A DNA stretch of 64,000 nt, taken from positions 3,037 to 67,036 of the forward strand of contig WOZJ01000071.1 in NCBI GenBank assembly GCA_011620345.1. Direction: 5' to 3'. The stretch is from Nitrospirota bacterium (GTDB lineage Bacteria > UBA2233). The notes under the pieces were generated by a model. That model saw only the letters and a list, made by a program, of their open reading frames with translations. It was not told the DNA's origin and searched no databases. Of the stretch, positions 24,058-45,400 are shown in pieces (position 1 is the stretch's first letter; the number at the start of each line of letters is the position of its first letter). Made by a program: the position numbers and the translations under genes.

Positions 24058-24059
24058 AG

Positions 24060-25406: not shown

Positions 25407-26008
25407 ACCTTTTTTGGTTAGGTAGATATACAACCCGTACGCTCGGGACGCTCACGCTCGGGCTGGAGGTGCTTCGGTGCTTGGCGAGGGGGTTCCCTTG
25501 GCCGAAGGCATACGAAGGGCTGCTTGGTAGGCTCCCTTTGGCTCAAGAAGCCCTCCCTTGGTTCCTCGATACGGTTGTACGCCAAGAAGAACCTCCGGGT
25601 GTAGGGTTTGCCCTTAAGATGGCCAGGGAGGATGCCATCTGCCTGCGGGGTCTTTTGGGTACAAAGGCCGTCACGCTCGTGAACCTTGCCGGCCAAGAAG
25701 CCATGGCAATCCAAGAGTCGAACGTGCTGCAGGCCCCCCAAAGAATACTGGCTTTTGGAAATGCCTTGCTTGTTCATACCAAAGAGAGGCTCGGAGCGGA
25801 ATGGGCCTGGATGTTTGAGCTTGGAGGATTCGTAGAAGCTCTCGATTTGCGCTTAAGCGTTCTGGATATGGAAGGAGCCCTGCATGCTGCCTCGCGGCTT
25901 AACGGCCTTTTCCAGGAAAACGGGCTTGCGATTGCGCCGTTGGAACAGCTAACGTTGCCCTCTTTAGAGGAGAAGGTTCATGCCTTTGAGCGCATGCTAT
26001 CTGTTTAA
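25376..26008 (+). CDS. Alpha-E domain (DUF403-like) protein, short and divergent
   Basis: LFWLGRYTTR and LGGFVEALD correspond to the two W..RY.ER / LG..ER repeats; sits between ATP-grasp and transglutaminase. Confidence 0.75.
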   Translation: MGIPTRTDCLNLFWLGRYTTRTLGTLTLGLEVLRCLARGFPWPKAYEGLLGRLPLAQEALPWFLDTVVRQEEPPGVGFALKMAREDAICLRGLLGTKAVTLVNLAGQEAMAIQESNVLQAPQRILAFGNALLVHTKERLGAEWAWMFELGGFVEALDLRLSVLDMEGALHAASRLNGLFQENGLAIAPLEQLTLPSLEEKVHAFERMLSV

Positions 26009-26804: not shown

Positions 26805-27726
26805 CCTGCCAACCCGCGAAACGGTTGCCCTTCAAAGGCAGCGCTTTTTTCCCGAGGGTACGGAGGGGTCTTTTAAGCACCTAAAAAGGCTTTCGGTTCT
26901 ATCCGGAATTCACGGAGATGAGCTGGAAGGGCTCTACATCTGCTACCGCCTCGCCTCCTTCCTTAAGGAAAACCCTCAGGCGATCCGGGGGGTCATCGAC
27001 ATCTATCCAAGCTTGAACCCTTTGGGGGTGAGCATGACCCGGCGGTTCGTCCCGTTCTTCGAGATGGATTTGAACCGCGTGTTTCCAGGGGATTCGTTTG
27101 GGAGCCTGCCCGAAAAGATGGCGCATGCGGCAGTCCATGCGGTAAGCGGCTCGAATATTGCTGTTGATTTGCATGCAAGCAACATTTTTTTAAAGGAAAT
27201 CCCTCAAGTTCGGATCGACGAGGGAAACACATCAAAGCTTTTACCCTTAGCCAAGCTTTTGAACGTAGACTTTGTTTGGGTATACCCTTCTGTTACCGTG
27301 CTCCGCTCAACATTGGCCCATACGCTCAACGCCATAGGCGTACGCACGCTCGTGGTCGAGATGGGGGTCGGGCTTCGGGTAACTCCCGTTTTCGGAGATC
27401 AGCTCGTTTCAGGTCTTCTCCATTTGATGGCCCATGAAGGGTTCCTTTCGCTCGATTCTCCGCCCGAAGTGCGCGAGCCCATTGTTTCTATAAACGAGCA
27501 AGTTTACTTTATAAATGCCGGCTGTTCCGGCCTGTTTATTCCCGGAGCAGACCATGGGGGAAGGATAGGAAAAGAAGAGGTGATCGGGCAAATCGTATCC
27601 CCCTTTACGGGAGAGGGGCTGGAGACGCTAAGGAGCCCGGCAGATGGCCTTTTGTTCACACTTCGGGCCTATCCGATCGTGTTCGAGGGCTCGTTGGTCG
27701 CCAGGGTCTGCGCACTGGAGGGCTAA
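26779..27726 (+). CDS. M14-family metallopeptidase (succinylglutamate desuccinylase/aspartoacylase-like), active-site residues intact
   Basis: GIHGDELEG, DLNRVFPG, DLH, VVEMG; C-terminal biotinyl-like hairpin. Confidence 0.9.
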   Translation: MLETWFTLNLPTRETVALQRQRFFPEGTEGSFKHLKRLSVLSGIHGDELEGLYICYRLASFLKENPQAIRGVIDIYPSLNPLGVSMTRRFVPFFEMDLNRVFPGDSFGSLPEKMAHAAVHAVSGSNIAVDLHASNIFLKEIPQVRIDEGNTSKLLPLAKLLNVDFVWVYPSVTVLRSTLAHTLNAIGVRTLVVEMGVGLRVTPVFGDQLVSGLLHLMAHEGFLSLDSPPEVREPIVSINEQVYFINAGCSGLFIPGADHGGRIGKEEVIGQIVSPFTGEGLETLRSPADGLLFTLRAYPIVFEGSLVARVCALEG

Positions 27727-28652
27727 TGGTACGAGAAATCTTGGTTCAAATGACTTCGCCGGCCGGCTATCCGATTCACGTCGTCGGGTTTCGGTTTGGG
27801 GAGGGTAGGCCAAAGGTGGCTATCGTGGGCGGCCTTAGGGGCGACGAGGTCCATCAAAGCTACGTGGTCGCACGGCTATGCGCCTTCTTGAGGCGGGAGG
27901 CCGAAAGGAACCCCGGCGTTATTCAAGGGGAAATTCTCCTCGTTCCGCTAGTCAACACCTTCGGGTTCAACGTGGGGTATCGCTTCTGGCCCCCGGATGC
28001 AACCGATATTGACAAAATGTTCCCTGGTTTTCGCTTCGGAGAGACCACACAGATTCTTGCCTATTCACTGTTTGAAAAGCTCAAGGATGCCGACTTCGGC
28101 GTGCACGTCACAAGCCTTGATCCCCATCAAGAGCACATGGCCCTCACGACGATGTACGGGTCTGGCTTGGGGAATATCGAGGCGGGGTCGTATTTTGGAA
28201 CCCATTTCTTGTACGTGAAGGATCCGAAACCCTTCGATACAGGATCTCTTTTGTACAACTGGCAAGTCTGGGACGTTCGTGCCCTTGGCTTGGTCGGGGG
28301 CAAGCCTTCAGAAATCCAACAAGACCTTGCCCTCGAACAAACAACGGCCATTCTTCGGTTTCTTTCCAAGGTTGGAGTCTTGAAGTTAAGGGTCCCGGAG
28401 CGCTTCAGCCCCGTTTTGCTCGAAGAGGCAGATTTGCTGCTTGTCCGGAACAGGCACTCTGGGCTTTTTTTGCCCCTCAAGGCTCCAGGGTGCGGAGTGT
28501 TCGAAGGGGAGACGTTAGGCTGGGTCCGGGATACGCTTACCGGTGAACCGCTCGAAGAGCTCCAAAGCCCATCCCTAGGAACCGTATTCTTTCGGTATGC
28601 CCGTCCCGCAATTTTTGAAGAGGAGGTGGCTTTCGGGGTTGCAACCCGCTGA
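27726..28652 (+). CDS. M14-family paralogue with degenerate active site
   Basis: GLRGDE (H to R), DIDKMFPG (NR lost), no DLH, no catalytic E; same overall layout as the upstream gene. Confidence 0.8.
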   Translation: MVREILVQMTSPAGYPIHVVGFRFGEGRPKVAIVGGLRGDEVHQSYVVARLCAFLRREAERNPGVIQGEILLVPLVNTFGFNVGYRFWPPDATDIDKMFPGFRFGETTQILAYSLFEKLKDADFGVHVTSLDPHQEHMALTTMYGSGLGNIEAGSYFGTHFLYVKDPKPFDTGSLLYNWQVWDVRALGLVGGKPSEIQQDLALEQTTAILRFLSKVGVLKLRVPERFSPVLLEEADLLLVRNRHSGLFLPLKAPGCGVFEGETLGWVRDTLTGEPLEELQSPSLGTVFFRYARPAIFEEEVAFGVATR

Positions 28653-31332: not shown

Positions 31333-33518
31333 AGTCAGGGTTTCTACTGGATGCCCACGAAACCCCAAAGGGGATAGGTTTGTGGTTGGCGTTGGACGAT
31401 GGAAGCCGTCCGCGTTTAGAGCGCGCCTTTAGCCCTGGCTTTGCACTTGAAAACGAGGGGAGGAAGACAAGGCGCGCAGTGGCGATCCTCCAAGGGCGCT
31501 TCGGTAAGGATATTCGGGTGGTTGAGGGCAAGGGGAACGACCTTCTTAAGGGGGAGGTGCCCCTTTTTGAAATTAAGGCCAAAGACCCATGGACGTTCGA
31601 GCGCCTCAAAGCCCAAGCCCTCCGCTCGGACCTCTTTGAGGGGCTTTGTGTTTACGGGGTTGATACCCCCGCCGTCTCGCAGTTTTTTTTGAAGACGGGG
31701 ATGTTTCCGTTCTGCAGGTTCGCTTTCAAAGACGGAGAGTTAAGGGTTTGCGACGAGCCCTTGGCGCTCGATTACCCCTTTCCGTCCCTTAGGGTCTTGG
31801 AGGTTTCCTTGGAACCCGAAGGGCTTGACCCAATGCACGCAAGAAGGGCGTTTGCGCTGTGCCTTCGGCCCTTGGGAGAAGAAGAGGGCCTCGTGCTAGA
31901 GGCCTGCGACAAAGAGGGCATCGAAAGCTCCTTAAGGCGCTTCGACCCCGACGTGATCCTCGCCCCGTTTGGCGACGGTTACACGCTCAAGCGCCTCCTT
32001 GCGCTGGGTGTCCGCACGCTTTCCAGAGAAGGGTTTCACGCCCGTCTTGGCGAAGACCAAACCATCGCCTCGTACGGAAAGGTCTATGCAAGGAAGGGGC
32101 CCGTGCTCCTAAGCGGGCGTCTCCACATTGACCCCCGCAACTCGTTTTTCTACCCGGAAGTCGGGCTGGCTGGACTCATCGAACTCTCCAGGGCCTGCGC
32201 CATCCCTTTGCAAGAGCTTGCCAGGACAACCCCCGGCAGGGCCATTACCCGGCTCGAGGCCCGCTTGGCTGGCCAGCTCGGGTTTCTTGTCCCGTTTCAA
32301 AAGGGCGTCCCGGAGGGCTTTAAAACGCTCGAGACGTTCCTTAGGCTCGATAAAGGGGGCTTGAGCTTCAGGCCGCTCGTGGGGTTTTTTGAGAACGTGG
32401 CCGAGTACGATTTTGCCTCGATGTACCCGAGCATCATCGTGAACTTCAACCTCTCGTACGAGACGCTCAACTGCGGGCATCCTTCTTGTCAAACGCGGCT
32501 TCCGGTCTCAGGGTACGGCGTTTGCTCGAAGCGCACCGGGATCGTGCCCTTTACCTTGAAGCGCCTGATCGAAAGGCGGGAAACGCTCAAAGCGAGGGCG
32601 GCTTTGGAGAGCGATCCCCGCCAAAGACAAGCGCTCGAGCAAAGGCAAAAGGCCCTTAAATGGCTGCTTGTCGTGAGCTTTGGGTATCTTGGCTACAGGA
32701 ACGCAAAATTCGGCAGGATCGAGGCGCACGAGGCGACGACGGCCATAGGGCGGGAGCTTTTGCTTTTTGCCAAAGAAATCGCCGAAGCAAGGGGGTTCAA
32801 GCTTCTCCACGCGCTGACGGATGCGCTCTGGGTTCAAAAAGAGGGCGCCCAAGAGCGTGCATACGTGGAGCTCGAGCACGAAATCATACGGAGGGTCAAC
32901 GCCGCATTCAAGCCGGTGTTGCCAGACGGGGTTCCATGGAAGGTCCGGCTTGAAGGGGTATACGCTTGGGTTCGTTTTCTTGCCTCCAAGGCCTACGGGG
33001 TTGGCGTTGGGAACCGCTACGTGGGCGTGTTTCAGGATAGAACGATCAAAGCAAGGGGAATCCTCCTTAGGCGTTCGGATACTCCACCGCTTATCAGGGA
33101 GTTCCAGGAGCAAGCGCTCCAACTCCTTGCCGGGGTTTCTAGCATCGAAGGTCTCCGTCGGCAATATTCGACGCTTCAAGGGCTTACCAAGGCCTACGAG
33201 GCCCGCCTCGAAGAGGGGAAGGTCAGGCCGGAAGCGCTCGCTGTCCGCCTTCGGCTCGCAAGGAACCCCTTGGACTACCAAAAGCGTTCTTTTTTGGCTG
33301 AGGCCGCCCAAAGCCTTTTGGCCGAAGGTCTCGGGGTGTCATTGGGCGAGACGGTGCGTTTTGTCCGGGTTCAGGACAAAGCGCTGAGGGCGAACCCCCT
33401 TTGGCTTTACCATGACAACCCCAAGCCGATCGATACGGCCTACTATGCAGGGCTCCTTCAAGAGGCGCTGGAAGAGCTTCTCCCTCAATCGCTCCTTAAA
33501 GAAAAAGCGCTTCCTTGA
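31329..33518 (+). CDS. polB2: Family B DNA polymerase, PolB2 (Dpo2-like) subgroup, lacking proofreading motifs
   Basis: Motif A YDFASMYPSII; motif B KWLLVVSFGYLGYRNAKFGRIEAHE; motif C HALTDALWV instead of YGDTDS; KARGILLRRSD. Confidence 0.9.
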   Translation: MKSGFLLDAHETPKGIGLWLALDDGSRPRLERAFSPGFALENEGRKTRRAVAILQGRFGKDIRVVEGKGNDLLKGEVPLFEIKAKDPWTFERLKAQALRSDLFEGLCVYGVDTPAVSQFFLKTGMFPFCRFAFKDGELRVCDEPLALDYPFPSLRVLEVSLEPEGLDPMHARRAFALCLRPLGEEEGLVLEACDKEGIESSLRRFDPDVILAPFGDGYTLKRLLALGVRTLSREGFHARLGEDQTIASYGKVYARKGPVLLSGRLHIDPRNSFFYPEVGLAGLIELSRACAIPLQELARTTPGRAITRLEARLAGQLGFLVPFQKGVPEGFKTLETFLRLDKGGLSFRPLVGFFENVAEYDFASMYPSIIVNFNLSYETLNCGHPSCQTRLPVSGYGVCSKRTGIVPFTLKRLIERRETLKARAALESDPRQRQALEQRQKALKWLLVVSFGYLGYRNAKFGRIEAHEATTAIGRELLLFAKEIAEARGFKLLHALTDALWVQKEGAQERAYVELEHEIIRRVNAAFKPVLPDGVPWKVRLEGVYAWVRFLASKAYGVGVGNRYVGVFQDRTIKARGILLRRSDTPPLIREFQEQALQLLAGVSSIEGLRRQYSTLQGLTKAYEARLEEGKVRPEALAVRLRLARNPLDYQKRSFLAEAAQSLLAEGLGVSLGETVRFVRVQDKALRANPLWLYHDNPKPIDTAYYAGLLQEALEELLPQSLLKEKALP

Positions 33519-35370
33519 CCGCGAAACAACGGGCTCTATGGCCGTCTTGGAGCGTGACCCATGGGGCCGGCTCGTCCTTGCAGTAAGGCCTTGCAACGGG
33601 ACAGCGAGGGGTGAACGCGCAGCCTTTGGGGAGCGTATACGGGTCGGGGGGGCTTCCTGGAAGCGCAAGGAGGGCAGTATCCGGGTCGTCCGCGTCGGGT
33701 TTTGGGATCGAATCGAGCAGCCCTTTTGTGTAGGGATGCTGGGGGTCTTGGAACAAGCGCGTCGATGGGCCCTCTTCGACAATCTCGCCCGCATACAGCA
33801 CAGAGACTCTGTCAGCCCAGCCCTTGGCAAGCGCGAAGTTGTGCGTGATGAACAAGATGCCTAGCCCGCGCGTTGTCTTGAGCTTGGTAAGGAGCGCGAG
33901 GATCCTAGCTTGCGTGGCAACATCGAGCGCCGTCGTGGGTTCGTCGGCGATCAAGAGGCTTGGCGAGAGCGCGAGCATGACGGCGAACACGACCCTTTGT
34001 CGCATGCCCCCCGAGAGCTCGTGAGGGTAAGCGAAAAAGCAGCGCCTCTGATTTTGGATGCCAACTTCCTTAAAAAGATGGAGCGCTTCCTCCTTGGCCG
34101 CAGCCCAAGAAAGCATCCTGGCGGCAACAAGCGCCTCTGCCACCTGTTTTCCGGCCTGCATCGTCGGGTTGAGCGACCCTAAAGGGTTCTGGAAAACCAT
34201 GGCCAGCTTAGGCTTGCCCAGCTGATCGAGGGGCCCAAGCCTTGGCAGTCGGAGCTCTTGGCCCATGAACAGGCACTTGCCAGAAACCAGCGAGCCTTTC
34301 TTTGGCAGGAGTCCCATAATGGACCTTCCTAGCGTTGACTTGCCAGAGCCCGACTCTCCCACGAGCGCGAGCATTTCGCCGGATTGAAGCGTAAGGCTAA
34401 CCTCTCTGATCGCAGGAAGCTCTCCCCTTGGCGTAAGGAACCTAACACAGGCTCGCTCGAGCGTTAGAAGCGGCGCTCCGACAGTTTTCTCTGGAGGGAG
34501 CGCGGGAATTTCGGCGCTACCCTTGACCAACGGCCTTGGTGCTGGCTCTCCCCTTTTTGGGTCCAGCAGGTCCCTTAGGGTATCGCCCAAGGTGTTGAAG
34601 GCAAGGAGCGTCGAACAGAGAATGGTCGCAGGGATGAAGAGCTGCCAGGGGTAGTACCAAGATTCCCGCGCTCCCTCCGTGATCAGCGTGCCCAGGCTGG
34701 CCCTAGGCAGTGGCACGCCAAGGCCGATGAAGGCAAGGAACGCCTCCAAGAATACGGCCTGGGGGATGGTGAGCGTCAAGGCCACCAGTACGGGACTCAT
34801 AACGTTGGGAAGGATGTGCCACAGGAGAATCCGGAACGGCCCCTGGCCCATAGCGGTCGCGGCAAGGACGAAGTCCTCTTCTTTTGCCCTCAAAACCTCG
34901 CCCCGCACGAGCCTGGCCATCGGGATCCAGCCCGTAAGCGTCATTCCAACTATGAGCGAGAAAACCCCAGGACCTAGGATTACTGCAAGCAAAAGGACCA
35001 CCATAATATAGGGGATGCTGTAGAGAACCTCTACCGCACGCATGAAAGTCGTGTCCAATTTCCCCCCGATGTATCCCGCGAGCCCGCCCAGCATCAGGCC
35101 AAGCCCCAAATCGATCAGCGCGGCCGCAAACCCGACGAACAAAGAGATCCTAGCTCCACCCCATGCCCTTATAAACAGGTCCCTTCCGAGCGCGTCCGTT
35201 CCGAACGGGTGGGCCAAGCCGGGAGGGAGGTTGGTTTGGGCAAGGTCGATCTCGTAGGGCGAAAAGGGGCTGAGCCAAGGCCCTAGCATGGCAAGCGTTA
35301 GAATGCCAATCAAAAAAAGAAGGCTTGCAAGGAGCAAGGGGCTGGCTTTCAGCGTTCGAGAGCCGGCCAT
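33496..35370 (-). CDS. oppCD: Fused oligopeptide ABC permease OppC + ATPase OppD
   Basis: HPFGTDALGRD and EAA-like loop, then GESGSGKST, LSGGMRQR, DEPTTALD, HPYT, C-terminal Cys cluster in one frame. Confidence 0.9.
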   Translation of the reverse strand: MAGSRTLKASPLLLASLLFLIGILTLAMLGPWLSPFSPYEIDLAQTNLPPGLAHPFGTDALGRDLFIRAWGGARISLFVGFAAALIDLGLGLMLGGLAGYIGGKLDTTFMRAVEVLYSIPYIMVVLLLAVILGPGVFSLIVGMTLTGWIPMARLVRGEVLRAKEEDFVLAATAMGQGPFRILLWHILPNVMSPVLVALTLTIPQAVFLEAFLAFIGLGVPLPRASLGTLITEGARESWYYPWQLFIPATILCSTLLAFNTLGDTLRDLLDPKRGEPAPRPLVKGSAEIPALPPEKTVGAPLLTLERACVRFLTPRGELPAIREVSLTLQSGEMLALVGESGSGKSTLGRSIMGLLPKKGSLVSGKCLFMGQELRLPRLGPLDQLGKPKLAMVFQNPLGSLNPTMQAGKQVAEALVAARMLSWAAAKEEALHLFKEVGIQNQRRCFFAYPHELSGGMRQRVVFAVMLALSPSLLIADEPTTALDVATQARILALLTKLKTTRGLGILFITHNFALAKGWADRVSVLYAGEIVEEGPSTRLFQDPQHPYTKGLLDSIPKPDADDPDTALLALPGSPPDPYTLPKGCAFTPRCPVARPYCKDEPAPWVTLQDGHRARCFAVKEALFL

Positions 35371-36342
35371 TCAGCGCTCCTTTGCTCCGAAGGTGCGGAT
35401 CCTTGGGTCTAAAAGGCCGTAGGCGATGTCGACCAAGAACATCGCGACGATCAGGAGCGCTGCGTAGAATACAGTCGTTCCCATGACGAGCGTGTAATCT
35501 CTGTCGTAGATGCTCTGGACGTAATATTTCCCTAGGCCCGGCACGTTGAAGATCGTCTCGATCACGAACGAACCGGTCGTGATGTTCACCACCATCGGCC
35601 CTAGGTAGGTTACGACGCTCAAGGCGGCGTTCCGAAGGATGTGATGCACCAGGAGTCTGGTATGCGCAAGCCCTTTGATCCTGGCCGTCTGGATGTAGTC
35701 TTGCCTTAGCACGTCCAAGATGCTCGCACGAAGGAGGCGAGCAATCGTCGCGGCAGGAAGGATGCTTAGCGTTAAGGCTGGCAAGAATCTTGCTGTTCCT
35801 CCCTCCCAGCCTGCGACGGGGAAAAGGCCAAGCCGAAATGCGAAAACGTACTGAAAAAGCAAAGCCAAAATGAACGATGGCACCGAAACGCCAAGGGCGG
35901 CCAAAAAGGTCGCGGATCGATCGATCTTTCCTTCATGGTACAGTCCAGCAAGCGCGCCCAAGAGCGTGCCCCAAAAAAGGGCCAGGAGCAAAGCCCAAAG
36001 CCCAAGCTCTGCCGATACAGGGAAGCCTTGAGCGATGATGTCGTTTACCGAACGGCCGAGCTGGACGTAAGAAACGCCGAAGTCGAGCCTTGAGAGGTTG
36101 CCCAGGTACCGAAAGTACTGCTTATAGAGCGGCTTATCGAGCCCATACTTGCGGTAGAGGTTCTCCCTGACCTGGGGGGTGACCTTGGGGTCCGCGAACG
36201 GGTCCCCTGGAATCAGACGCATGCCAAGGAACGTGAACGTTGCGACGACCCAAAGCGTGGTGAGCATCATGATGACACGTCCGAACAGGCGCCAAAGAGG
36301 GCCTTTGCCTTGCAGCCTCACTCCGCTTTGTGCAGGCCTCAT
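35371..36342 (-). CDS. oppB: Oligopeptide ABC permease
   Basis: IPGDP, YGLDKP, DFGVS, DYIQTARIKGL, ETIFNVPGLG, DPRIR; ATG 36342 is ATGA-coupled to the oppA stop. Confidence 0.93.
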   Translation of the reverse strand: MRPAQSGVRLQGKGPLWRLFGRVIMMLTTLWVVATFTFLGMRLIPGDPFADPKVTPQVRENLYRKYGLDKPLYKQYFRYLGNLSRLDFGVSYVQLGRSVNDIIAQGFPVSAELGLWALLLALFWGTLLGALAGLYHEGKIDRSATFLAALGVSVPSFILALLFQYVFAFRLGLFPVAGWEGGTARFLPALTLSILPAATIARLLRASILDVLRQDYIQTARIKGLAHTRLLVHHILRNAALSVVTYLGPMVVNITTGSFVIETIFNVPGLGKYYVQSIYDRDYTLVMGTTVFYAALLIVAMFLVDIAYGLLDPRIRTFGAKER

Positions 36343-37964
36343 GGTTGGAGGCTTGCCCATTTGAGAGGCCCGTCGGCTCCGCACGCCAAGAACACGACAC
36401 CCTTGAGATAGGGCGGCACGAGCGCGTAGGAGAGCCTGTAGAACACGGGAACAACCGGGCTTTCTTGCATTAGCAATTTTTCTGCGTGGACAAAGAGCGT
36501 CATGCGCTCGGCTTGATCTGAGCTCCGGCGCGCTTTTTCGATGAGCGCATCGTAGGCGGGATTCGAAAAGCCCGGGTCGTTGAACGGCGAGCCTGTCGTG
36601 AACAGGTCGAGAAACGTCATTGGATCGTCGTAATCTGCCCCCCAAAGCACGTTGGCCGCATCGTAATCCTTCGTTGCCACGCGCGCCAAACGGGTTTGAT
36701 AGGTGACGGGATCGAGGCTGACCTTGACCCCTAAGTGTTTTTGCCAGAAGAACTGGAGCACCTGCCCAAGCCTTCTTGCTTGAGGGGTATCGTCGATTAA
36801 AAGAGAGAACGTGAGCTCCTTTTGCCCTGATTCTTTGAGCCCTTCTTGGAACAGCGCCTTTGCTTCCTCGATACTTCTATCCTCGAACCAAACGCTCGTT
36901 TTGTACGGCCTGCTGGTCAATGGGTCGTAAAACACCCTGAAGCGTTCCCCAAAATGCGCTCGAAACGAGCGTCCTGGCCCGTCTCCCGAGATCGTCGGCG
37001 GGACAAACCCGTAGGCCGGGAGCGATTGCCGGTCAACGTTGGCACAGTAAGCCTGCCTGTCCAGAACAAGGCTCAACGCCTTGCGTATCTTTGGGTTTTG
37101 AAAGGCCTTGAGGTCTGGACGGTGCAAATTGAATACGATGTAGTCGGTAACGGCCTCAGGCCTGGGCTTGAGCCAAGGGTTTCCTGCGTAGCGGGGCAAA
37201 TGGACGGTAGGAACCTGGTAGATCAGGCTCAACGCACCCGTGTCGTACATCTGGACGAGCGTGTTCGGATCCTTGACGACGACGAACTCAGCCCCCTTTA
37301 AAAGCACGGCTTCTTTGTCCCAGTATCGCAGGTTTTTTTCCAACACGACCTTCGAGCCCTTCTTCCAGGCTGCGACGACAAAGGGCCCGTTGAACACGGT
37401 TCGCTCTGGGCTCGTCCCGTAGCTTTGGCCTAACGCTTCGAGCAAGTCCTGTCTAAGCGGCAAATATGCGGGGAAGGCCGTAAGCCAAAGAAAATAGGGC
37501 GTAGGCCGCTTTAGTAGGATCCTGAGTGTTCGCTCGCCTAGAACATCGACACGCTCCACCGTGTCGGTGACGATATAGGCGTACTGGGCGGCCGTTTTAG
37601 GGTCCATCACACGCCCTAAGGCGAAGGCGAAATCTTTCGCCATGACTGGAACGCCGTCGCTCCAAAGGGCATTTCTTAAAAAAAACGTGTAGGAGCGCTT
37701 GTCTTTCGAGACTTCGATCTTACTTGCAATCCCTGGAACGATCCGGCCGCCCGGCCCGACCCTGGTTAGCCCTTCGTAGATGTTCGTAAGCACCCGGAAC
37801 GTAACGGAATCCGTGGATAGCCCAGGGTCGAGGATGCGAATGTCGTCCCCTATCTCCGAAATGAGGACGCCTGGCCTGGGGGCTTCTGGTTGCGGTCCTC
37901 CATGACACCCAAAAAAAGGGGCCGAAAGAAGCAACCAGAACCAAGCCTTGGCACCAAAACGCAT
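36339..37964 (-). CDS. oppA: Oligopeptide ABC substrate-binding lipoprotein
   Basis: Lipobox-like FFGC, LDP, YEGL, WSDG, NGPF, WGADYDDPMTFL; ATG 37964 after AGGAAGG. Confidence 0.92.
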   Translation of the reverse strand: MRFGAKAWFWLLLSAPFFGCHGGPQPEAPRPGVLISEIGDDIRILDPGLSTDSVTFRVLTNIYEGLTRVGPGGRIVPGIASKIEVSKDKRSYTFFLRNALWSDGVPVMAKDFAFALGRVMDPKTAAQYAYIVTDTVERVDVLGERTLRILLKRPTPYFLWLTAFPAYLPLRQDLLEALGQSYGTSPERTVFNGPFVVAAWKKGSKVVLEKNLRYWDKEAVLLKGAEFVVVKDPNTLVQMYDTGALSLIYQVPTVHLPRYAGNPWLKPRPEAVTDYIVFNLHRPDLKAFQNPKIRKALSLVLDRQAYCANVDRQSLPAYGFVPPTISGDGPGRSFRAHFGERFRVFYDPLTSRPYKTSVWFEDRSIEEAKALFQEGLKESGQKELTFSLLIDDTPQARRLGQVLQFFWQKHLGVKVSLDPVTYQTRLARVATKDYDAANVLWGADYDDPMTFLDLFTTGSPFNDPGFSNPAYDALIEKARRSSDQAERMTLFVHAEKLLMQESPVVPVFYRLSYALVPPYLKGVVFLACGADGPLKWASLQP

Positions 37965-38082
37965 CGCTTGCCTTCCTAAAAGGAGGTATGTAACAATAGG
38001 CAACGAATATAACCAGCACAAGGGATGAAGCGCTTTGAGAACAGCACCCATTCCGACTAGAAATACCTTGATCCATGGGATA

Positions 38083-39537
38083 ATGTACCCTGTCGTCCTC
38101 CTGTGCGCAATCGTCTTGGTTCAAGCCCAAGCTTCTGCCCGCTCGTTTTACGAGCAAGGCTATCGCATGGCGAAGACGCTCTCTCCGGCGTATTCCACGC
38201 TCGCTTCCCAGCTCAAGGAGGAGGCGGAACCGGATGCATGGAGCAGGGCGATTGCAATGGCCCGGCGCCACGAAGCGACGCTTGCCCGTTACTTCCCAGA
38301 GCAGCTCGAAAGGCTAAGGGGCATGTCCACGGCTATCGGCACAAATCCAACGGAGACGATCGCCCTTTCGATGTTCTTGAACCGCGGACAGCAGTGTGCC
38401 CAGGGGGCGAGCGCCCCTCCGGCCACGAAAGACGGCCAGGTGTACTTGACATGGAACTTCGAGACGCTCACGGCAGCAAGGCCTTTATTCATCCTGCCTC
38501 TCTTTTCGATCGTCGAAAACCAAGAAGGCTATAAGTTTTGCTTTCTTGGCTTGCCGTATTTCTTCGGTGTTCCCTTGATGAACGAGAAGGGCCTTTCGCT
38601 GTCGGCCGCCTCGATGACGATAAACGAGGACGGGGAGGGCCTTACGCCCTTCGAGCTGGCCGTTTTGGTAATGGAAAGGGCCGCAAACGTGGATGAGGCC
38701 GTGGAGATTTCCAAAGCGATGCCCCGATACTCGACCTCTGACATCTACTGGGGCAACTGGATGAACTGGAGCTTCACCCTGGCCGATGCCCAGGAGAACG
38801 TGGCGACTATCGAGATGACAACCACGCTTTTCGAGGAGGTTCGCCCGAAAAACAAGATCGTTGCGCGTGCCAACCACTACGACTACCTGCCAGACGAGAT
38901 GACAACCTGTTATCCCCTGGCCCCGCAGTATTCCAAAGGCGAGGCCTCGGCCTGCTTCGGCTCAAGGATGCGGGCCTCGAGGATGTGGAGGCTTTTGGAG
39001 GACAACTACGGGAACATCGACTTGGAACTGGTCAAGACATTCCCCGCGGACACTAAAGGCGGGGAGCCGTTCATGGGCAGGCCCTCGGGCACATGGTGGA
39101 CGATCGAGCGGCACAGCCACACGTTGCCACGCGACCAGTCCGTCTGGAACGACGTCCCCTACAACCCCCAGGTCGATATAGATTACGTCATCGAGCAGTT
39201 CAACCTCGTCTACGAGCCCAAGCGGCGAGTGCTTTGGTGGTCTTCTGGCCATGCCTCCAGGGGGTACTTCACCCCGATATTTCTTGCCCCATGGTTTGGC
39301 GTGGAGGGCCCAACGATCGAGACCTACCAAGGACCCCAGAAGAACTACGCAAGGGTGCTGAACAGCTGGGTGAAGGTTTCAGACGAGTTTTTTGGGCTTG
39401 CGGAAGTTGTGCTTGGGCTTGGGGCCAGGACAGCCCAGCTTTTCGGGTATACGGCCGGCATTGAACCTAACGAGGGCTCGGTTGCATTGGGTGCCTTTAG
39501 GCCCTATGGAACCGAAACGCCAAGTGTTGCAGAATAA
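38083..39537 (+). CDS. Secreted C45-family (AAT / Ntn-hydrolase) autoproteolytic acyltransferase/amidase, paralogue 1
   Basis: Signal peptide; YEQG..ERLRGM pro-segment; QQCAQ...ATKDGQVYLTWNFE; MNEKGL; ARANHY; SRMRxxR. Confidence 0.8.
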   Translation: MYPVVLLCAIVLVQAQASARSFYEQGYRMAKTLSPAYSTLASQLKEEAEPDAWSRAIAMARRHEATLARYFPEQLERLRGMSTAIGTNPTETIALSMFLNRGQQCAQGASAPPATKDGQVYLTWNFETLTAARPLFILPLFSIVENQEGYKFCFLGLPYFFGVPLMNEKGLSLSAASMTINEDGEGLTPFELAVLVMERAANVDEAVEISKAMPRYSTSDIYWGNWMNWSFTLADAQENVATIEMTTTLFEEVRPKNKIVARANHYDYLPDEMTTCYPLAPQYSKGEASACFGSRMRASRMWRLLEDNYGNIDLELVKTFPADTKGGEPFMGRPSGTWWTIERHSHTLPRDQSVWNDVPYNPQVDIDYVIEQFNLVYEPKRRVLWWSSGHASRGYFTPIFLAPWFGVEGPTIETYQGPQKNYARVLNSWVKVSDEFFGLAEVVLGLGARTAQLFGYTAGIEPNEGSVALGAFRPYGTETPSVAE

Positions 39538-39550
39538 AAAAAGGGGGAGC

Positions 39551-40987
39551 ATGTACAGTATGCGGTTAATTTGCCGATACGGATGTTTTGCGGTGGGTCT
39601 GATTCTTGCCCTGGCGCACACAGGAAACGCCACCCCTTTCTTTGAAGAGGGTGTCACGCTAGGAAGGAGCTTCAAAGAGGCTTACCGTTCGTTCGCTGAA
39701 GATGCCAAGGCGTCGGGCTTAAACGAGCAGGCCTCGGCGCTTAGCCAGGGGCATATTCAAGACCTTGCCAGCTACTACCCGGAATACCTAGAAAGGCTTG
39801 AGGGTATTTCGGAGTCCTCCGGGGTTCCGACCGAAGATCTCGTAAAGGCCAGTTTCGTCTTGGCGTTAGGTCCAAAGTGTGCCCAGTCGGGTGCCGCCCC
39901 GCCCGCCACGAACGACGGCCAGGTGTATCTTTCCTGGAACTTCGAGTCCGCGCTTTTGGCCAGGCCGATCTTTTCGATTCCATTCTTTAGCGTGCTCGAG
40001 CCAAAAAACGGCTACAAGACGTTCTTTTGGGGCATTCCTTACCTGATCGGCGTCGCGATCATGAACGAAAAGGGGCTATCGCTCGCCGCCTCTGCCATGA
40101 ACTACGACGACGACGGGACGGGGCTTACCTCGTTCGAGCTTGCCAGCATGGCGATGGAGCGCTGCGCCACGATTCCCGAAGTGACCGAACTTTTGGGCTC
40201 GGTACCTCGGTTTTCCACCTCCGACCCAACATTCGGGGCGTCGATCAACTGGACGTTTTCGATGGCGGACGAGCAGGGTAACGTGGCCATGATAGAGTTC
40301 ACTCACAGCTATTTAAAGTGGGACTACGGCGAAAATGGGATTGTCGGGAGAGCCAACACCTACCAGCTCCTGCCTTTAGAGAAGACGACCTGCATATCAA
40401 CGTCGAAGTACTTCACGCCAGACATGGCGCTCGCTTGCTGGGGGGCGGATATGCGGGCCCTTAGGATGTGGGAATTGGTACGCACAAACTACGGCAACAT
40501 TGACCTGGAAGCGATGAAGCGTTTCACTGCGGACACAAACGGGGGAACGGATTTCCTTGGCAGGCCCGCCGGCTCTTGGTGGACGCCGGAGCGTCATGGC
40601 CAGACCTTGCCCGAGGACCTTGCCCGTTTCCAGGGCACGCCCTACATACCGATCATTATGGACTTCGGCTACGTGATTACCCATACGGTGTTCATCTACG
40701 AGCCCAAAAGAAAGATTATCTGGTGGACGCCAGGACATACCTCGAGAATCGGGCATATCCCCCTCTTCGCAGGTGAGCTGATGGGGGTCCAGGGAGCCGC
40801 CAGGATCGAGGATTACCAAGGACCGGCCCGCAACGCGGCTAGGGTCGTCCACTCTTTTTCCGGTGTGGCCCAAGCGTTGGGCGGCTCGATCGGGTTGATT
40901 GCAGGGCAGTTCTTCCAGGCAATCAACGGCAGGGATGTTTCGCCCGGCTATCCTGGCCTTTACTCGACCCAATTGGGGAGCCAGTAA
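39551..40987 (+). CDS. Secreted C45-family (AAT / Ntn-hydrolase) protein, paralogue 2
   Basis: Signal peptide; PKCAQ...ATNDGQVYLSWNFE; MNEKGL; colinear with the upstream paralogue; ATG 39551 after GGGGGAG. Confidence 0.8.
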   Translation: MYSMRLICRYGCFAVGLILALAHTGNATPFFEEGVTLGRSFKEAYRSFAEDAKASGLNEQASALSQGHIQDLASYYPEYLERLEGISESSGVPTEDLVKASFVLALGPKCAQSGAAPPATNDGQVYLSWNFESALLARPIFSIPFFSVLEPKNGYKTFFWGIPYLIGVAIMNEKGLSLAASAMNYDDDGTGLTSFELASMAMERCATIPEVTELLGSVPRFSTSDPTFGASINWTFSMADEQGNVAMIEFTHSYLKWDYGENGIVGRANTYQLLPLEKTTCISTSKYFTPDMALACWGADMRALRMWELVRTNYGNIDLEAMKRFTADTNGGTDFLGRPAGSWWTPERHGQTLPEDLARFQGTPYIPIIMDFGYVITHTVFIYEPKRKIIWWTPGHTSRIGHIPLFAGELMGVQGAARIEDYQGPARNAARVVHSFSGVAQALGGSIGLIAGQFFQAINGRDVSPGYPGLYSTQLGSQ

Positions 40988-40991
40988 CGGG

Positions 40992-41522
40992 TTGGAATAT
41001 CTAAGGCCCGCACGGTACGCGGACCTTGAGCTTTTGGCGCGCACCGGACGCGAAGACCCGGTGCGCGCCTTTTTCCTTGATTTTCGGGGCGATCTGGACC
41101 CTGCCCCTTTTTCGCGCCTCCGCGGAGCGTTTAGGGAAGAGCTTTTAAAGGGCAGCTCAAGCAGGCTGCTGGTTGTTCGAGCCGCATCTTCTCCGCTCCC
41201 AGAGGCCTTCGTGTTGGTTAGCTTTTTTGAGGGAATCGAAGGGGACTGCTTTCTAAAGGCCTTGCCTTGCATGGAGAACCTCGAAACCAAAGCCCTGCTA
41301 GACGGGCTAAAAGAGCTTTTAAATTATATTTTTCTATCAAGAAACCGCCACCGGGCCATGGCTCAATTCCTGGGCTGCGAAGAGCCCTTGCTTGGGCTGT
41401 TTGAGAAGCTAGGCTTTATTCAAGAGGGCAGAAGGCGCGAGGAGGTGTACGCCCGAGGGCGATTTTACGACGTCATCCCTCTTAGCATGACACAAAGCCG
41501 CTTTCTTGCTCAAAATTCATGA
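40992..41522 (+). CDS. RimJ/RimL-like GNAT-fold protein, divergent
   Basis: N-terminal YLRPARYADL; C-terminal FEKLGFIQEGRRREEVYARGRFYDV; TTG start just after the upstream stop. Confidence 0.7.
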   Translation: MEYLRPARYADLELLARTGREDPVRAFFLDFRGDLDPAPFSRLRGAFREELLKGSSSRLLVVRAASSPLPEAFVLVSFFEGIEGDCFLKALPCMENLETKALLDGLKELLNYIFLSRNRHRAMAQFLGCEEPLLGLFEKLGFIQEGRRREEVYARGRFYDVIPLSMTQSRFLAQNS

Positions 41523-42091
41523 GAACCGGAAAATTCGTCCTACTTCGAAAGCCAGAAGAGGATGACCTCGATTTCCTTCTGGCCGTCTTCCAGGATCCAG
41601 ACTATCGCCGCTTTATCGGAGGCGACCCCTTGGAGAGAGAAAAGCGGCTCAAGGACCAAATCCTCCGTGCGGCCCAGGGGCTTTTTTCTTACGATGCAAA
41701 CCTTTATGCGATCGTTTGCCGACTGAAAGACGGCCGCAGGGTTGGCTGCATATTTTTCAACAAGGTCTCCTGGCGAAACCGTAACGCGACGCTAGACGTG
41801 TTCTTTCTAAAGGAAGAACGCGCCACGATGGCCGTCATGGACGCCTACGTGGCGGCCATCGAATACGCATTTTTGGACTTGGGCCTCCATAAGGTGATCG
41901 GCTACGTCTACGCGTTCAACGAAAGGCTCGTCAAGATCCACAAAAAGCTGGGGATTCAGATCGAGCAGCGGCTGATCGAGCACGTCTACCGGGACGGGCG
42001 CTACCACGATGTCCTGGCCTTCGGGATGCTCGAGCCGGAGTTTCGTGAGCTTACGAAAAAGCCCTTCTACAAGTTCCTGCGCGGCGGATAA
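41519..42091 (+). CDS. RimJ/SpeG/PseH-like GNAT-fold protein
   Basis: VLLRKPEEDDL, SWRNRNA, YAFLDLGLHKV, FNER, HKKLG, DGRYHDV. Confidence 0.85.
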   Translation: MRTGKFVLLRKPEEDDLDFLLAVFQDPDYRRFIGGDPLEREKRLKDQILRAAQGLFSYDANLYAIVCRLKDGRRVGCIFFNKVSWRNRNATLDVFFLKEERATMAVMDAYVAAIEYAFLDLGLHKVIGYVYAFNERLVKIHKKLGIQIEQRLIEHVYRDGRYHDVLAFGMLEPEFRELTKKPFYKFLRGG

Positions 42092-43680
42092 TGGCCTACG
42101 AGGACCTCTACGTGTTTACGGTTGAGGAAGAACCCTTCGCGTTTCATACGAAAACGGCCTTCCTCGTGCAGCTGGACGCTCCGACGGCGAGGTTTTTAAA
42201 CCTTCGAGGTGACGCGAGTGCCTTCTTAGAAGAATTCCCCGGGCAGGTCTTGAACGAGTGCATGGGGGCACTCTCCGGTCTATACGAAGACGACCTTCTC
42301 CCAAAAGAGCTGGAGATTGAAGAGCGCAAGAGCCCTAAAAACCCCCGTTGGGTGCTGGATCTAGCGTCCATCCAAGACCCGCTCTTCGTGCTCGGTGCCA
42401 CCTTGAAGGCGACTGCCGCCTTAAGCCCAAGCCAAAGCGCCCCGCTTGTTGTTGGAATGAGCGCAAAAGAGAGGATCGCCTCTTATCCATCTAAGACCCC
42501 TGGCGTAGTTTTTGGTGTCCATGAGACAGAAGGAGTGTTTCGGTTTCCCTCGGGTTCAAACCCGATGGATGCCGTATTGTGTCTGGAAACATTCGAGCCT
42601 GCACTTATCCAGAGACTGTTTCGCGAGGGTACTGGTAGAGTCTGGTTGGATTGGGGGGGATGGATTCCAAGCCCCCCAAAAGGGCTCTTTGATGCCCTCG
42701 TTTCCCTTATGGGCTCTGTCTGGGAAGAAAACCCCAAAGCCATACTCGAGCCTTTATCCTCTTGGATCCGAGCCATGTACGAGGCCGTCCCCCCAGTTCA
42801 CCCCCCCTGGATAGGGGTCTTGCTGCCAGGCCAGGATAAATCCTTGAGCCTCAAGGCCTCGCCTCGCGCCCCCGAATCGACGTTTGTCAGTCTGCAAGAT
42901 GTCTTAGCCCTCTTAGGAGAGTCGGATACCTGCAAGCCCGTATGCAGGGCCTGCCCGATCCTAAAGCTTTGCCAAGGGGGGCATTGGGCGCCACGGCTGA
43001 AGAATGCGCAAGCCGGGTATCAAATCTCCCCTCCCGATCCAAAAGAGTGCGCCATTGCCTTCGATGTGTTCCGCGCCGCCGTCGCCCTGTACGACCGGCT
43101 AGAACGCGAAGGGCTTTTGGAAATCCAGGCAGGAGACGCGCCAACCAAGAAGATGGAACGTTTCGCCTGGGGGACGCACGCTCTAAGTGCTCGCTTAATC
43201 ACAGAAGAATCCTTCACCGAAGTGAGTCCTTTCCTTAAAAAAGCCTTTGACGACGGGATTTTCCTGGTTGAGCGATTTTTAGACCCCTCATGGAGAGAGG
43301 TTCAAAGGCTCCTTCAAGAAGATGAACCGAGGCGCAGGCTCGTTGTGCTAAGGAGCGGCGAGGGGGAGCCTTGCGGGTTTTTATGGGTTGCGGCGCTTGA
43401 GCAGGATTATAGGGCCGATGCATCGCTATGGCTCTCTGAGCACGCCTACGGGGTGCTTACGCCTTCTGTCCTAAAGGACTTCCTACGGGCGTTACTCAGG
43501 GACCTTGGCATAAGAAAGCTTAGCTTGTACGCCTTGACGGGGCATGCTAGGCTTGAAAGGTTGCTCGAGAACGCCGGAGCGGTACATGAAGGGGTGCTCC
43601 GTGAAGCCGCGTTTCTCGAAGGCGGCTTCCGGGACGTTGCCGTTTACGCATGCCTCGAGAAAAAACTTGTAACAAAGTAG
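42091..43680 (+). CDS. Fusion: RRE-like N-terminus + degenerate radical-SAM core + SPASM remnant + C-terminal GNAT
   Basis: N-terminus resembles QhpD/CteB RRE; no CxxxCxxC; CRACPILKLCQGGH-x21-C; C-terminal LGIRKL...GAVHEGVLRE...GGFRDV. Confidence 0.65.
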   Translation: MAYEDLYVFTVEEEPFAFHTKTAFLVQLDAPTARFLNLRGDASAFLEEFPGQVLNECMGALSGLYEDDLLPKELEIEERKSPKNPRWVLDLASIQDPLFVLGATLKATAALSPSQSAPLVVGMSAKERIASYPSKTPGVVFGVHETEGVFRFPSGSNPMDAVLCLETFEPALIQRLFREGTGRVWLDWGGWIPSPPKGLFDALVSLMGSVWEENPKAILEPLSSWIRAMYEAVPPVHPPWIGVLLPGQDKSLSLKASPRAPESTFVSLQDVLALLGESDTCKPVCRACPILKLCQGGHWAPRLKNAQAGYQISPPDPKECAIAFDVFRAAVALYDRLEREGLLEIQAGDAPTKKMERFAWGTHALSARLITEESFTEVSPFLKKAFDDGIFLVERFLDPSWREVQRLLQEDEPRRRLVVLRSGEGEPCGFLWVAALEQDYRADASLWLSEHAYGVLTPSVLKDFLRALLRDLGIRKLSLYALTGHARLERLLENAGAVHEGVLREAAFLEGGFRDVAVYACLEKKLVTK

Positions 43681-44108
43681 CGTGTACAGTGCATTACAGG
43701 AAAGAAGAGCTTAAGTTTGCCGATAACGAGCAGCGGGTCGTCGCGGTTCATGAGCATCTCGTGGGCCTTGTGACGCAAGCGAGAAAAGCCCTGGAAAACA
43801 AAGAGCCACAAAGGCTCAAGAAGCTCCTCGATGCCGCGATGGATGCAGTGGCGACTCTCGACATGCACCTGGATTTCCGGTCAAATCCGGCGTTTGCTGC
43901 TGCGATCCGTCGCTGGTACGCGTTTTGGACGCTTTGCATGATGGATGCACGCCAGGCGGAGGGCGAAAGCACAGCGGCCACCTTGCAAGAGCTCGAAGAT
44001 TCTCTGAAGGAGTTCGTTCTCTCGCTTCGTGACGGCATGGTGCTTCGCAACGCTCCCGTCCCAGAGCAAAAAGGCTCGCAAAAAGGCGGTGTGTCGTTTA
44101 ACGCCTAG
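43650..44108 (+). CDS. fliS: FliS-like flagellin chaperone, orphan and divergent
   Basis: Four-helix pattern ARKALE...AMDAVATLDMHLDF...AAAIRRWYAF matches FliS A.dIi.eL...Ld....A.nL..LY.y; start may be GTG 43689. Confidence 0.6.
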   Translation: MPREKTCNKVACTVHYRKEELKFADNEQRVVAVHEHLVGLVTQARKALENKEPQRLKKLLDAAMDAVATLDMHLDFRSNPAFAAAIRRWYAFWTLCMMDARQAEGESTAATLQELEDSLKEFVLSLRDGMVLRNAPVPEQKGSQKGGVSFNA

Positions 44109-45400
44109 AAGACGTTCGAGGGTTTTTCCTCTTCAAGGATTCCGTATGGCTTTTCGAGAAAGGCTTCGCCTTTGGGTGTCCTCTTGAGGACCAACGCGGG
44201 GTTTTCTTCGTGGAGCAGGGTTTCTATGTTCTGAATTCGGATGAGCCCGTAATCGTTCAGGTACTCCACGTGGGCCCCGACCTCTTCGAGGGCGAGAAGG
44301 TGGTTGTACCCTTCGGAGTGCATCGGGTAGACGCTGCGAGTTACATCTACAACGGTGCGGGGTTCGCTGAAAAGCCGAAGAATTTCCAAAAGCCTCTCTT
44401 GATGGTGGTGCAGAAGTTCCGTACCCCTCTTTGAAACGTCCTGGATTTCGCCTTCATGTCCTCCTAAGCCGAGCCTGACGCCTTCCAGACTGCCGATACG
44501 TTTAAGCGCGCCGATATAGTGCCCAAGCCCGCAGAACGGGGCGATGTGTTCTGGGCTTTGATGGGGCGTGATGGTCGGCAGAATATGATCGCCCGTAAAC
44601 AGGATGTCGTCGTACAACAAGCAGACCTCACCCGGGCAGTGTCCCGGGGTATGGATCACGCGCATGCCTTTTAGGGTGTCCCCGTCCCGTAAGGCGCTTT
44701 GTGGTTCGAAATCTTTAAAAAAGGCCTTCCCAAATCGGTACATCTCTTCCATTTGTAAGGCCCTTTCGCTCGAAACTCCGGCCCTTCGAAGGAAAACGCC
44801 CAGGTCTTTCGATAGCAGGACGGTTCGTTCCTCGAACTGTGCGAGCGATTTGAAGTCCAGCTCGTGGATATGGACGCGCGCTTTCGAGCGTTCAACCAAC
44901 CCATGGAGCCCGCCAAAATGGTCAATATGGCCGTGGGTAAGGACGATATCCGTGATATCTTCGATGCAAAAGGTTTGTCCGAAGCACTCCGGGAGAAGCA
45001 GCTCGGCCCTCTTTAAGTCTCTTAGGGCGGTTTCTGTCGTCGTGGCCGCGTCGATCAGGACGTTGCCCGAAGCCTGCGGCAAGAAATAAAGGTTGTTGAT
45101 GTGCCCAGGAAAGGTTTCTGCTACAATCCTGTACACGGGCCGGCCCGAGGCCGTTTTGTAGCGCTTCAGTCCTGCGATGCCGTAATGATCCACGTACGCG
45201 CTTAAAGACGCACCCGAAGACCTCGCTGCCTGTAGCTCTTGAAGGCGTTCCTCGAAAGCCCCTTGGCACTCCAAAGTGGCATCGATGCGGGCATGGACCC
45301 TTCCAAGAAGGTCTTCGGATTTTTCCGGTGCGGCCTGCGTTGCAAACAGGGCCTCTTCGGCCTTCCAAAGTGCCTTAAGTATAGATACAATCCCTGACAT
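44105..45400 (-). CDS. Metallo-beta-lactamase-fold hydrolase with N-terminal extension
   Basis: THGHIDHFGG, HTPGHCPG, TGDHIL, GHE. Confidence 0.9.
   Translation of the reverse strand: MSGIVSILKALWKAEEALFATQAAPEKSEDLLGRVHARIDATLECQGAFEERLQELQAARSSGASLSAYVDHYGIAGLKRYKTASGRPVYRIVAETFPGHINNLYFLPQASGNVLIDAATTTETALRDLKRAELLLPECFGQTFCIEDITDIVLTHGHIDHFGGLHGLVERSKARVHIHELDFKSLAQFEERTVLLSKDLGVFLRRAGVSSERALQMEEMYRFGKAFFKDFEPQSALRDGDTLKGMRVIHTPGHCPGEVCLLYDDILFTGDHILPTITPHQSPEHIAPFCGLGHYIGALKRIGSLEGVRLGLGGHEGEIQDVSKRGTELLHHHQERLLEILRLFSEPRTVVDVTRSVYPMHSEGYNHLLALEEVGAHVEYLNDYGLIRIQNIETLLHEENPALVLKRTPKGEAFLEKPYGILEEEKPSNVF

Follow-up and report, generated by a model that had tools for sequence, protein, structure and literature searches.

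The window analysed here is a 64,000-nucleotide stretch of contig WOZJ01000071.1 (positions 3,037 to 67,036 of the forward strand) from the Nitrospirota bacterium assembly GCA_011620345.1. Between positions 38035 and 44108 it carries six plus-strand open reading frames (ORFs), which a preliminary description made from the sequence had presented as co-oriented and close-packed; the ORFs lie where that description placed them, with gaps of at most 13 nt or overlaps between neighbors. Our main subject is the fifth gene, g5, whose product joins a recognition element for peptides that are made on the ribosome and modified after translation (RiPPs), hereafter RRE, to a dead radical-SAM core, a SPASM remnant and a GNAT domain. 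Together with the two GNAT genes directly before it, g3 and g4, it probably constitutes a reduced, split form of an undescribed RiPP-like system. The genes of the array and the domains of the fusion are as follows.

38035..39537, plus strand: g1, secreted C45-family Ntn (N-terminal nucleophile) hydrolase/acyltransferase proenzyme
39551..40987, plus strand: g2, second secreted C45 paralog
40992..41522, plus strand: g3, divergent GNAT, counterpart of GNAT-A (defined below)
41519..42091, plus strand: g4, RimJ/SpeG-like GNAT, counterpart of GNAT-B (defined below)
42091..43680, plus strand: g5, 529-aa fusion of RRE, dead radical-SAM core, SPASM remnant and GNAT
42091..42288, plus strand: g5 residues 1-66, RRE-like domain, modelled as three strands followed by three helices
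42340..42786, plus strand: g5 residues ~84-232, shortened radical-SAM-like core without CX3CX2C, from the family alignment
42787..43110, plus strand: g5 residues ~233-340, SPASM remnant with four invariant Cys, from the alignment and from SPASM-model matches of relatives
43153..43677, plus strand: g5 residues 355-529, C-terminal GNAT, from PDB profile search, Foldseek and VIA
43689..44108, plus strand: g6, FliS flagellin chaperone, 139 aa

Read from the DNA, the g1 stop (TAA, 39535-39537) and the g2 ATG at 39551 leave a 13-nt gap, and the g2 start is preceded by a strong ribosome-binding site, AAAGGGGGAG. Four nucleotides separate the g2 stop at 40987 from the TTG start of g3 at 40992, g3 and g4 overlap in ATGA at 41519-41522, and g4 and g5 overlap in TAATG at 42089-42093. 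The overlap of g5 and g6 at 43650-43680 given in the preliminary description is probably an artefact of ORF extension, because the residue equivalent to GTG 43689 is the first residue in eight of nine aligned FliS homologues (alignment A4); with this start g6 begins 8 nt past the g5 stop, and the packing remains tight. For g1, TTG 38035 (500 aa) may, judging from the sequence, be the start in place of ATG 38083; the homologues P0155-P0157 are 498-500 aa long, in line with the TTG, and a signal peptide is predicted from either codon. A promoter and terminator scan of the region returned sites no more numerous than in shuffled sequence, so a single transcript is neither backed nor broken by it. 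The array is most likely one operon of composite content.

Against Pfam and NCBIfam, g5 matched no radical-SAM or SPASM model, and TIGR03974 and NF047865 in particular were unmatched at E ≤ 0.01. Its relatives are few: only six were found among 5.8 billion clustered proteins, an exhaustive profile search of 1.84 billion representatives gave four matches below 1e-10, a first metagenome scan with the profile of the g5 group (A1) gave none, and in a scan of genome contigs the syntenic sister genome was the sole match. A group of ~620-aa proteins is nevertheless homologous to g5 (P0009, P0014, P0015, P0048 and P0094; hmmsearch, 2e-9 to 8e-5), g5 being ~90 aa shorter than this wider family and 16-20% identical to it. 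Profile-profile alignment (hhalign) of the g5 group with the ~620-aa group (A2) gave 99.2% and E = 9e-20 over g5 residues 172-527, leaving residues 1-171 uncovered, so that the RRE is called from the structural model and from invariant residues. The ~620-aa relatives match the ScfB/PapB/QhpD type of radical-SAM/SPASM models for peptide maturases, and a GNAT forms their C-terminal end. P0015 and P0048 match the ScfB/PapB models starting at residue ~100, reaching 2.4e-51 and 1.3e-29, respectively, against TIGR03974, far under the curated cut-offs.

Structure prediction agrees with this assignment. The AlphaFold2 (AF2) model of g5 went from a predicted local distance difference test score (pLDDT) of 44 with six sequences, which was unusable, to 74.4 with the family alignment of 23 sequences, and the RRE region scores 78-94. 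Within that region F24, D29, L61 and L64 are invariant in all 23 family members. Residues 4-338 of the model, RRE included, superpose on CteB (5wgg_A) with Z = 12.4 and a root-mean-square deviation of 5.0 over 297 aligned residues. The CteB likeness was seen only in the exhaustive VIA-align search; Foldseek of the model against the PDB returned GNAT matches only (2.9e-09). Residues 354-529 resemble RimL, RimJ, PseH and peptide-acting GNATs (Z 13-14.8, VIA), and a PDB profile search with the C-terminal domain found SpeG at 3.5e-07 as well as RimL and RimJ.

The cysteines of g5 tell the same story in more detail. At the core position the CX3CX2C radical-SAM cluster motif is present in none of the 23 family members, while C285, C288, C294 and C320 are kept in every one of them. 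The SPASM remnant thus retains CX2CX5C plus one Cys 26 residues on, an incomplete version of the seven-Cys SPASM arrangement; the next SPASM Cys is a His in g5, and a Cys is kept there in P0015, P0048 and L023. Judging by the anSME structure, the four retained residues are presumably those that bind the second auxiliary cluster. A CX3CX2C does occur inside the SPASM remnant of four of the 23 sequences (g5 and its closest kin) by way of the non-conserved C281, and we read this sequence coincidence as fortuitous. The RRE/pseudo-radical-SAM/SPASM/GNAT composition first proposed for g5 is therefore upheld by profile comparison, AF2 model and Cys alignment. In what we consider the best explanation, g5 descends from a SCIFF/ranthipeptide-type radical-SAM maturase (ScfB/CteB-like) that kept the RRE and the four-Cys site, lost the cluster motif and gained a GNAT. 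In CteB, according to passages of one report, the leader is bound by the N-terminal RRE in the form of a beta strand, and the SPASM domain holds two [4Fe-4S] clusters (PMC8326336).

Fusions of the ~620-aa type were recovered from 13 loci by a metagenome scan plus a sample of 401 genomes, three of which contained a full-length match. Gene order was judged in the nine loci whose upstream flank is 5 kb or longer (two of them, L016 and L026, closely related). All nine share one order on one strand: small peptide genes, two GNAT genes (GNAT-A, then GNAT-B), a CPBP/Rce1-like protease gene, an ABC ATPase gene, an ABC-2 permease gene and the fusion gene. Each cassette has one to five small peptide genes with an MKH leader, and the nine loci together hold 34 small ORFs starting M[KRN][HR]-hydrophobic-x-x-hydrophobic-[STN], mostly MKH and all on the fusion strand. 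This leader may resemble that of SCIFF, a likeness that the NCBIfam scan described below does not support. A literature search at title and abstract level found no description of a g3-g5-type system or of the wider cassette.

This cassette is rare, and its GNAT-A, GNAT-B and fusion genes have their counterparts, in the same order, in g3, g4 and g5. For g4 the evidence is direct: it matches Pfam Acetyltransf_3 (PF13302; 1.7e-15, 58.3 bits against a cut-off of 25.4) and, over nearly its full length, the GNAT-B proteins of 10 fusion-bearing loci (28-35% identity, E 4e-18 to 7e-36), and the 10-sequence GNAT-B alignment (A5) has 17 invariant columns. There is no Pfam match for g3, which finds SpeG at 2.3e-05 (phmmer) and aligns with the GNAT-A profile A6 over residues 4-170 (hhalign, 96.9%, E = 1.4e-10); GNAT-A is the better match, the GNAT-B profile reaching 90% over residues 83-171 only. 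What had been suggested as a GNAT trio is accordingly a conserved module, with g4-like GNATs accompanying the fusion in 10 distant loci and g3 fitting GNAT-A. The other domain calls made for the array (two C45 proteins, two GNATs, the fusion and FliS) likewise held, those of g3 and g5 only once profiles or folds were compared.

The host genome (G000) is 1.8 Mb in size and 96.8% complete, and the collection searched contains just two species genomes of its phylum. The closest named relative is the sister genome, the metagenome-assembled "Nitrospirae bacterium UBA2233," which is fully syntenic throughout the region and so provides no independent evidence on gene order. Between the two species the ratio of nonsynonymous to synonymous substitution rates (dN/dS) is 0.08 for g1, 0.10 for g2, 0.11 for g3, 0.14 for g4 and 0.24 for both g5 and g6, compared with 0.12, 0.21 and 0.08 for the neighboring genes oppA, MBL (metallo-beta-lactamase fold) and topA. 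Values of 0.08-0.24 indicate that all six genes are maintained by purifying selection, and those of g3-g5 (0.11-0.24) rule out decaying pseudogenes.

A search of the host genome for CPBP genes, combined with blastp using cassette components, located a set of genes resembling the remainder of the cassette on contig C24.

C24:4197-7266 (locus L121): promoter-like site, three small ORFs, CPBP gene, ABC ATPase gene, ABC-2 permease gene

Pfam identifies the CPBP protein (7e-14) and also confirms the ABC ATPase and the ABC-2 permease, which are 42% (3e-79) and 38% (5e-44) identical to their cassette counterparts. The CPBP gene abuts the ABC ATPase gene, which overlaps the permease gene. Upstream of the CPBP gene lie three ORFs of 47-52 aa (C24:4271-4414, 4446-4604 and 4635-4793), each with a ribosome-binding site and a KK[GA]G motif, preceded by a promoter-like TTGACA-17-TAGGAT. 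The sister species has kept all of this stretch, and the indels seen there in the first ORF preserve the reading frame. From these sequence comparisons, the cassette is probably split between the g3-g5 locus and contig C24.

In the mechanism that we propose, the RRE of g5 would hold the leader of a small ribosomal peptide while the GNAT domains of g5, g3 and g4 would acylate the amines of the peptide, on lysine side chains or at the N-terminus. A CPBP membrane protease would then cut the leader off, and an ABC-2 transporter would export the product. Distant relatives carry the genes for peptide, protease and exporter alongside the fusion; here these genes are probably those of the C24 set. That g3-g5 form a peptide-acylation module of this kind, with leader holding by the RRE, acylation by three GNATs and CPBP/ABC-2 processing most likely supplied by C24, is the reading we favor, and we judge it rather more probable than all else taken together. 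Homology, architecture, co-occurrence and selection come from direct comparison; from these we infer the substrate, the acyl donor, the chemistry and the link to C24.

Several observations weigh against this peptide-acylation reading, beginning with the peptides themselves. In the host genome a search with a hidden Markov model of the MKH-leader peptide gave a best E of 1.9, for a match without a start codon, and a pattern search for MKH-type starts across its 1.8 Mb gave two unconvincing ORFs and nothing credible. The distant precursor peptide that the preliminary description had allowed for has candidates in the small C24 ORFs, but none with the cognate leader. Those ORFs are rich in Gly, Pro and Lys and do not resemble the distant cassettes' helical peptides, and none of 32 peptides (29 from cassettes plus the three C24 ORFs) matches any NCBIfam peptide family at E ≤ 1. 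The C24 permease matches transporters in 34 of the 401 genomes, many of them without a fusion, and those of fusion-less genomes match it just as well (best 2.6e-40); in four of four C24-like transporter loci from fusion-less genomes CPBP and GNATs are absent, and trees of the ABC ATPase and the ABC-2 permease place the C24 genes neither with nor apart from the cassette-linked transporters.

The GNAT domains raise a further difficulty. The canonical GNAT acyl-CoA pyrophosphate loop reads Q/R-x-x-G-x-G/A, and g4 has R-A-T-M-A-V where SpeG has Q-G-Y-G-Y-A; the g5 GNAT likewise lacks the Gly pair in alignments. With the canonical loop missing, the acyl donor, and even catalysis, is uncertain. A last set of reservations concerns the neighbors of g3-g5, since the linkage of the fusion to FliS persists in three relatives whose fusions share 43-45% identity with g5, and since the trio is packed tightly with the C45 pair and FliS, which may therefore matter.

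Taken alone, the loop invites the view that g3-g5 are a non-catalytic remnant, serving as scaffold, chaperone or regulator after loss of the peptides, protease and exporter. The loss of the radical-SAM motif, the ~90-aa shortening of g5 and the lack of a cognate leader peptide point the same way. Against this, dN/dS is 0.11-0.24, all 23 sequences keep the four Cys and the RRE residues unchanged, and the GNAT-B loop follows one consensus, R-x-x-hydrophobic-x-[AG], in all 10 sequences, which together with the 17 invariant columns marks it as a family trait and not decay. A family-wide non-canonical loop of this kind could possibly reflect an unusual acyl donor, and we consider a non-catalytic remnant most improbable.

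Whether the C45 pair and FliS belong to the pathway is a separate matter. The preliminary description had envisaged all six genes as one acylation-deacylation system; the GNAT-trio core of that idea stands, and the membership of C45 and FliS is not supported, both being absent from the distant fusion loci. When g1, g2, g6, the MBL protein and OppA were compared by blastp with every ORF of the fusion loci L009-L110, there were no matches. Closer to the host the picture differs. Treating clusters as sharing a contig where the longest contig of each has the identical size in bp, we find fusion P0006 (43% identity) with FliS P0180 (53%) on a 9,238-bp contig, the fusion fragment P0007 with FliS P0179 (56%) on a contig of 2,146 bp, so short that the two must be adjacent, and fusion P0182 (45%), FliS P0178 (56%) and C45 P0156 (83%) on a 44,225-bp contig. 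A further fusion relative, P0008, has 541 aa, is 29% identical to g5 and comes from a 10,832-bp contig of a low-GC organism. Fusion homologues without C45 or FliS, the observation named at the outset as telling against the joint system, are hence the case in distant loci and not in close relatives that share contigs. As a unit of six genes the array is not conserved, and the C45 pair and FliS look like neighbors of the GNAT core, not proven partners.

Of the two C45 proteins, g1 exceeds the cut-off of NCBIfam NF040521 (C45_proenzyme; 99.5 bits against 85) and matches Pfam AAT (PF03417) at 9.1e-09; g2, 43% identical to g1, falls just below the same NF040521 cut-off with 82.3 bits. Each has a signal peptide at its N-terminus, and the nucleophile Cys is invariant in all 10 aligned family members, g2 included (A9). 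The g1 subfamily comprises 13 database proteins and occurs, among the 401 genomes, only in the host and one other (G001); a phmmer search of g1 against the PDB gave nothing significant. The minus strand of another contig (C25:37577-40355; L117 7577-10355) encodes a third C45 paralog, also secreted, that shares 42-44% identity with g1; a rhodanese gene and then a gene for LolA-like lipoprotein sorting come after it, in a run that contains no GNATs.

The sixth gene passes the Pfam FliS cut-off of 26.7 with 37.8 bits, scores 18.8 against TIGR00208, below the cut-off of 53.75, and is the single FliS match in the whole genome. A specialized FliS paralog is ruled out by this sole copy, which must serve ordinary flagellin. 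Flagellin is encoded in the genome, with Flagellin_N matches on contigs C7 and C26, and no match to PF01973, the Maf-type flagellin glycosyltransferase family, was found there. The main flagellin gene sits on the 3.1-kb contig C7 (L007), which ends before the 3' end of the gene, the part encoding the protein C-terminus, is complete; the assembly may have broken here because of repeats or because flagellin is present in several copies. FliS homologues found in a word-indexed search all came from the host lineage, and in that lineage the protein carries a conserved C-terminal tail of ~20 aa past the Pfam match, with K141, G142, G147, S149 and A152 invariant (A4). Prediction of a complex between g5 and FliS scored 0.01 (mark 0.32), which we take as evidence neither way.

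These features bear on three readings in which the neighbors take part. If the C45 pair but not FliS belonged to the peptide pathway, the trio would acylate C24 peptides, CPBP and ABC-2 proteins would process and export them, and the C45 enzymes would deacylate or trim them in the periplasm, much as the pyoverdine precursor, once exported, loses its acyl chain to periplasmic PvdQ. The C45 genes immediately precede the trio at gaps of 4-13 nt, both products have a signal peptide and the invariant nucleophile, and the subfamily (2/401 genomes, 13 proteins) is confined to the same lineage as the reduced fusion. None of the nine full cassettes contains a C45 gene, however, the third paralog has an unrelated context, the PvdQ parallel is an analogy, and the adjoining Opp-type importer makes scavenging of peptides or amides, a role unrelated to the pathway, just as good an explanation, so that we regard this as unlikely.

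Making all six genes a system that acts on flagellin held by FliS, or on FliS itself, with the cytoplasmic trio acylating the substrate ahead of export and the C45 pair removing or transferring the acyl group after export, would explain the packing (gaps of ≤13 nt or overlaps throughout), the contigs shared by fusion and FliS in three relatives (one with a C45 as well), the conserved FliS tail, a flagellin-bearing genome free of PF01973 glycosyltransferases and the lack of a local precursor peptide. It is decidedly unlikely all the same, given the missing counterparts of g1, g2 and g6 in L009-L110 and a third C45 paralog that has rhodanese and LolA-like genes for neighbors and no GNAT nearby. 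The sole FliS of a genome, moreover, needs no special explanation for its presence, and a C45 identity of 83% marks the 44,225-bp relative as fairly close, so that simple inheritance could explain the kept gene order. Finally, in this deep-branching lineage a RiPP maturase module freed from its own peptides, protease and exporter might have been rewired with the sole FliS and the C45 pair, acylating flagellin or the FliS tail before type-III export and leaving the C45 enzymes to edit the acyl groups. This we hold to be very unlikely; if true, it would be a RiPP-derived system that modifies a secreted protein.

The genes flanking the six-gene array are unrelated to it. Upstream, on the minus strand and divergent from g1 (33496-38051), is an Opp-type peptide importer made up of a solute-binding lipoprotein of family 5, a permease and a permease-ATPase fusion. 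For the ORF of the binding protein 37964 is probably the start rather than 38051, leaving only ~70-120 bp for both promoters. Downstream, an MBL-fold hydrolase gene (44105-45400, minus strand) converges on fliS with stop codons overlapping by 4 nt, no terminator-like site was seen between the two, and topA, sppA, trmFO, hslVU and arginine genes follow. Farther upstream in the window, a plus-strand run at 23955-28652 encodes a circularly permuted ATP-grasp protein, a 219-aa ORF of no assigned family, a transglutaminase-like protein and two AstE/AspA-like proteins (succinylglutamate desuccinylase/aspartoacylase type), and looks like a peptide- or amide-ligase operon. Between 29891 and 33518 a LexA-like S24 peptidase gene on the minus strand points away from an ORF of 159 aa and a gene for a family-B DNA polymerase, and the three may form a damage-inducible polymerase unit.

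The peptide-acylation reading of g3-g5 adds a reduced, probably split form to an uncharacterized class in which a radical-SAM maturase has become a scaffold that holds the peptide for GNAT chemistry. It shows how the chemistry of RRE-bearing enzymes can change while substrate recognition is retained, and it makes the three small C24 ORFs candidate substrates. The conserved placement of the module beside the sole fliS raises the question of whether a RiPP maturase has been recruited to a secreted protein.

Like the C45 acyl-CoA:6-aminopenicillanic-acid acyltransferase-like proenzymes, g1 and g2 match NF040521/PF03417 models and keep the invariant Cys, but their subfamily has a Sec signal peptide and a C-terminal extension of ~140 aa. 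Like other FliS export chaperones, g6 is the only copy in a flagellin-bearing genome and scores above the Pfam cut-off, whereas its extra tail and its position, behind a peptide-maturase gene and away from the flagellin genes, set it apart. Relative to the wider fusion cassette, the g3-g5 locus lacks the peptide, CPBP and ABC genes, none of which occurs elsewhere in the window and a look-alike set of which is found on C24, and the trio is flanked by C45 genes and fliS.

The fusion itself follows CteB/ScfB (PDB 5WGG; TIGR03974) in the order of RRE, barrel-like core and Cys-rich SPASM region, and departs from them in its shortened core, the loss of CX3CX2C, the retention of only four SPASM Cys and the added GNAT; unlike SCIFF, the peptides linked to the g5 family have no Cys-rich core. 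Selidamides, which arise by GNAT-dependent lipidation of ribosomal peptides, offer a parallel in that a GNAT maturase would acylate lysine-type side chains of a leader-bearing peptide, and those systems are not known to have a dead radical-SAM scaffold or a CPBP/ABC-2 pair. The C-terminal domain of g5 shares its fold with RimJ/RimL/SpeG, MccE and the lasso-peptide acetyltransferase 9IY3. Set against RimJ/RimL/SpeG-type GNATs, g3-g5 have a non-canonical loop and reach no NCBIfam equivalog cut-off, and here three GNAT domains are grouped around a single RRE scaffold.

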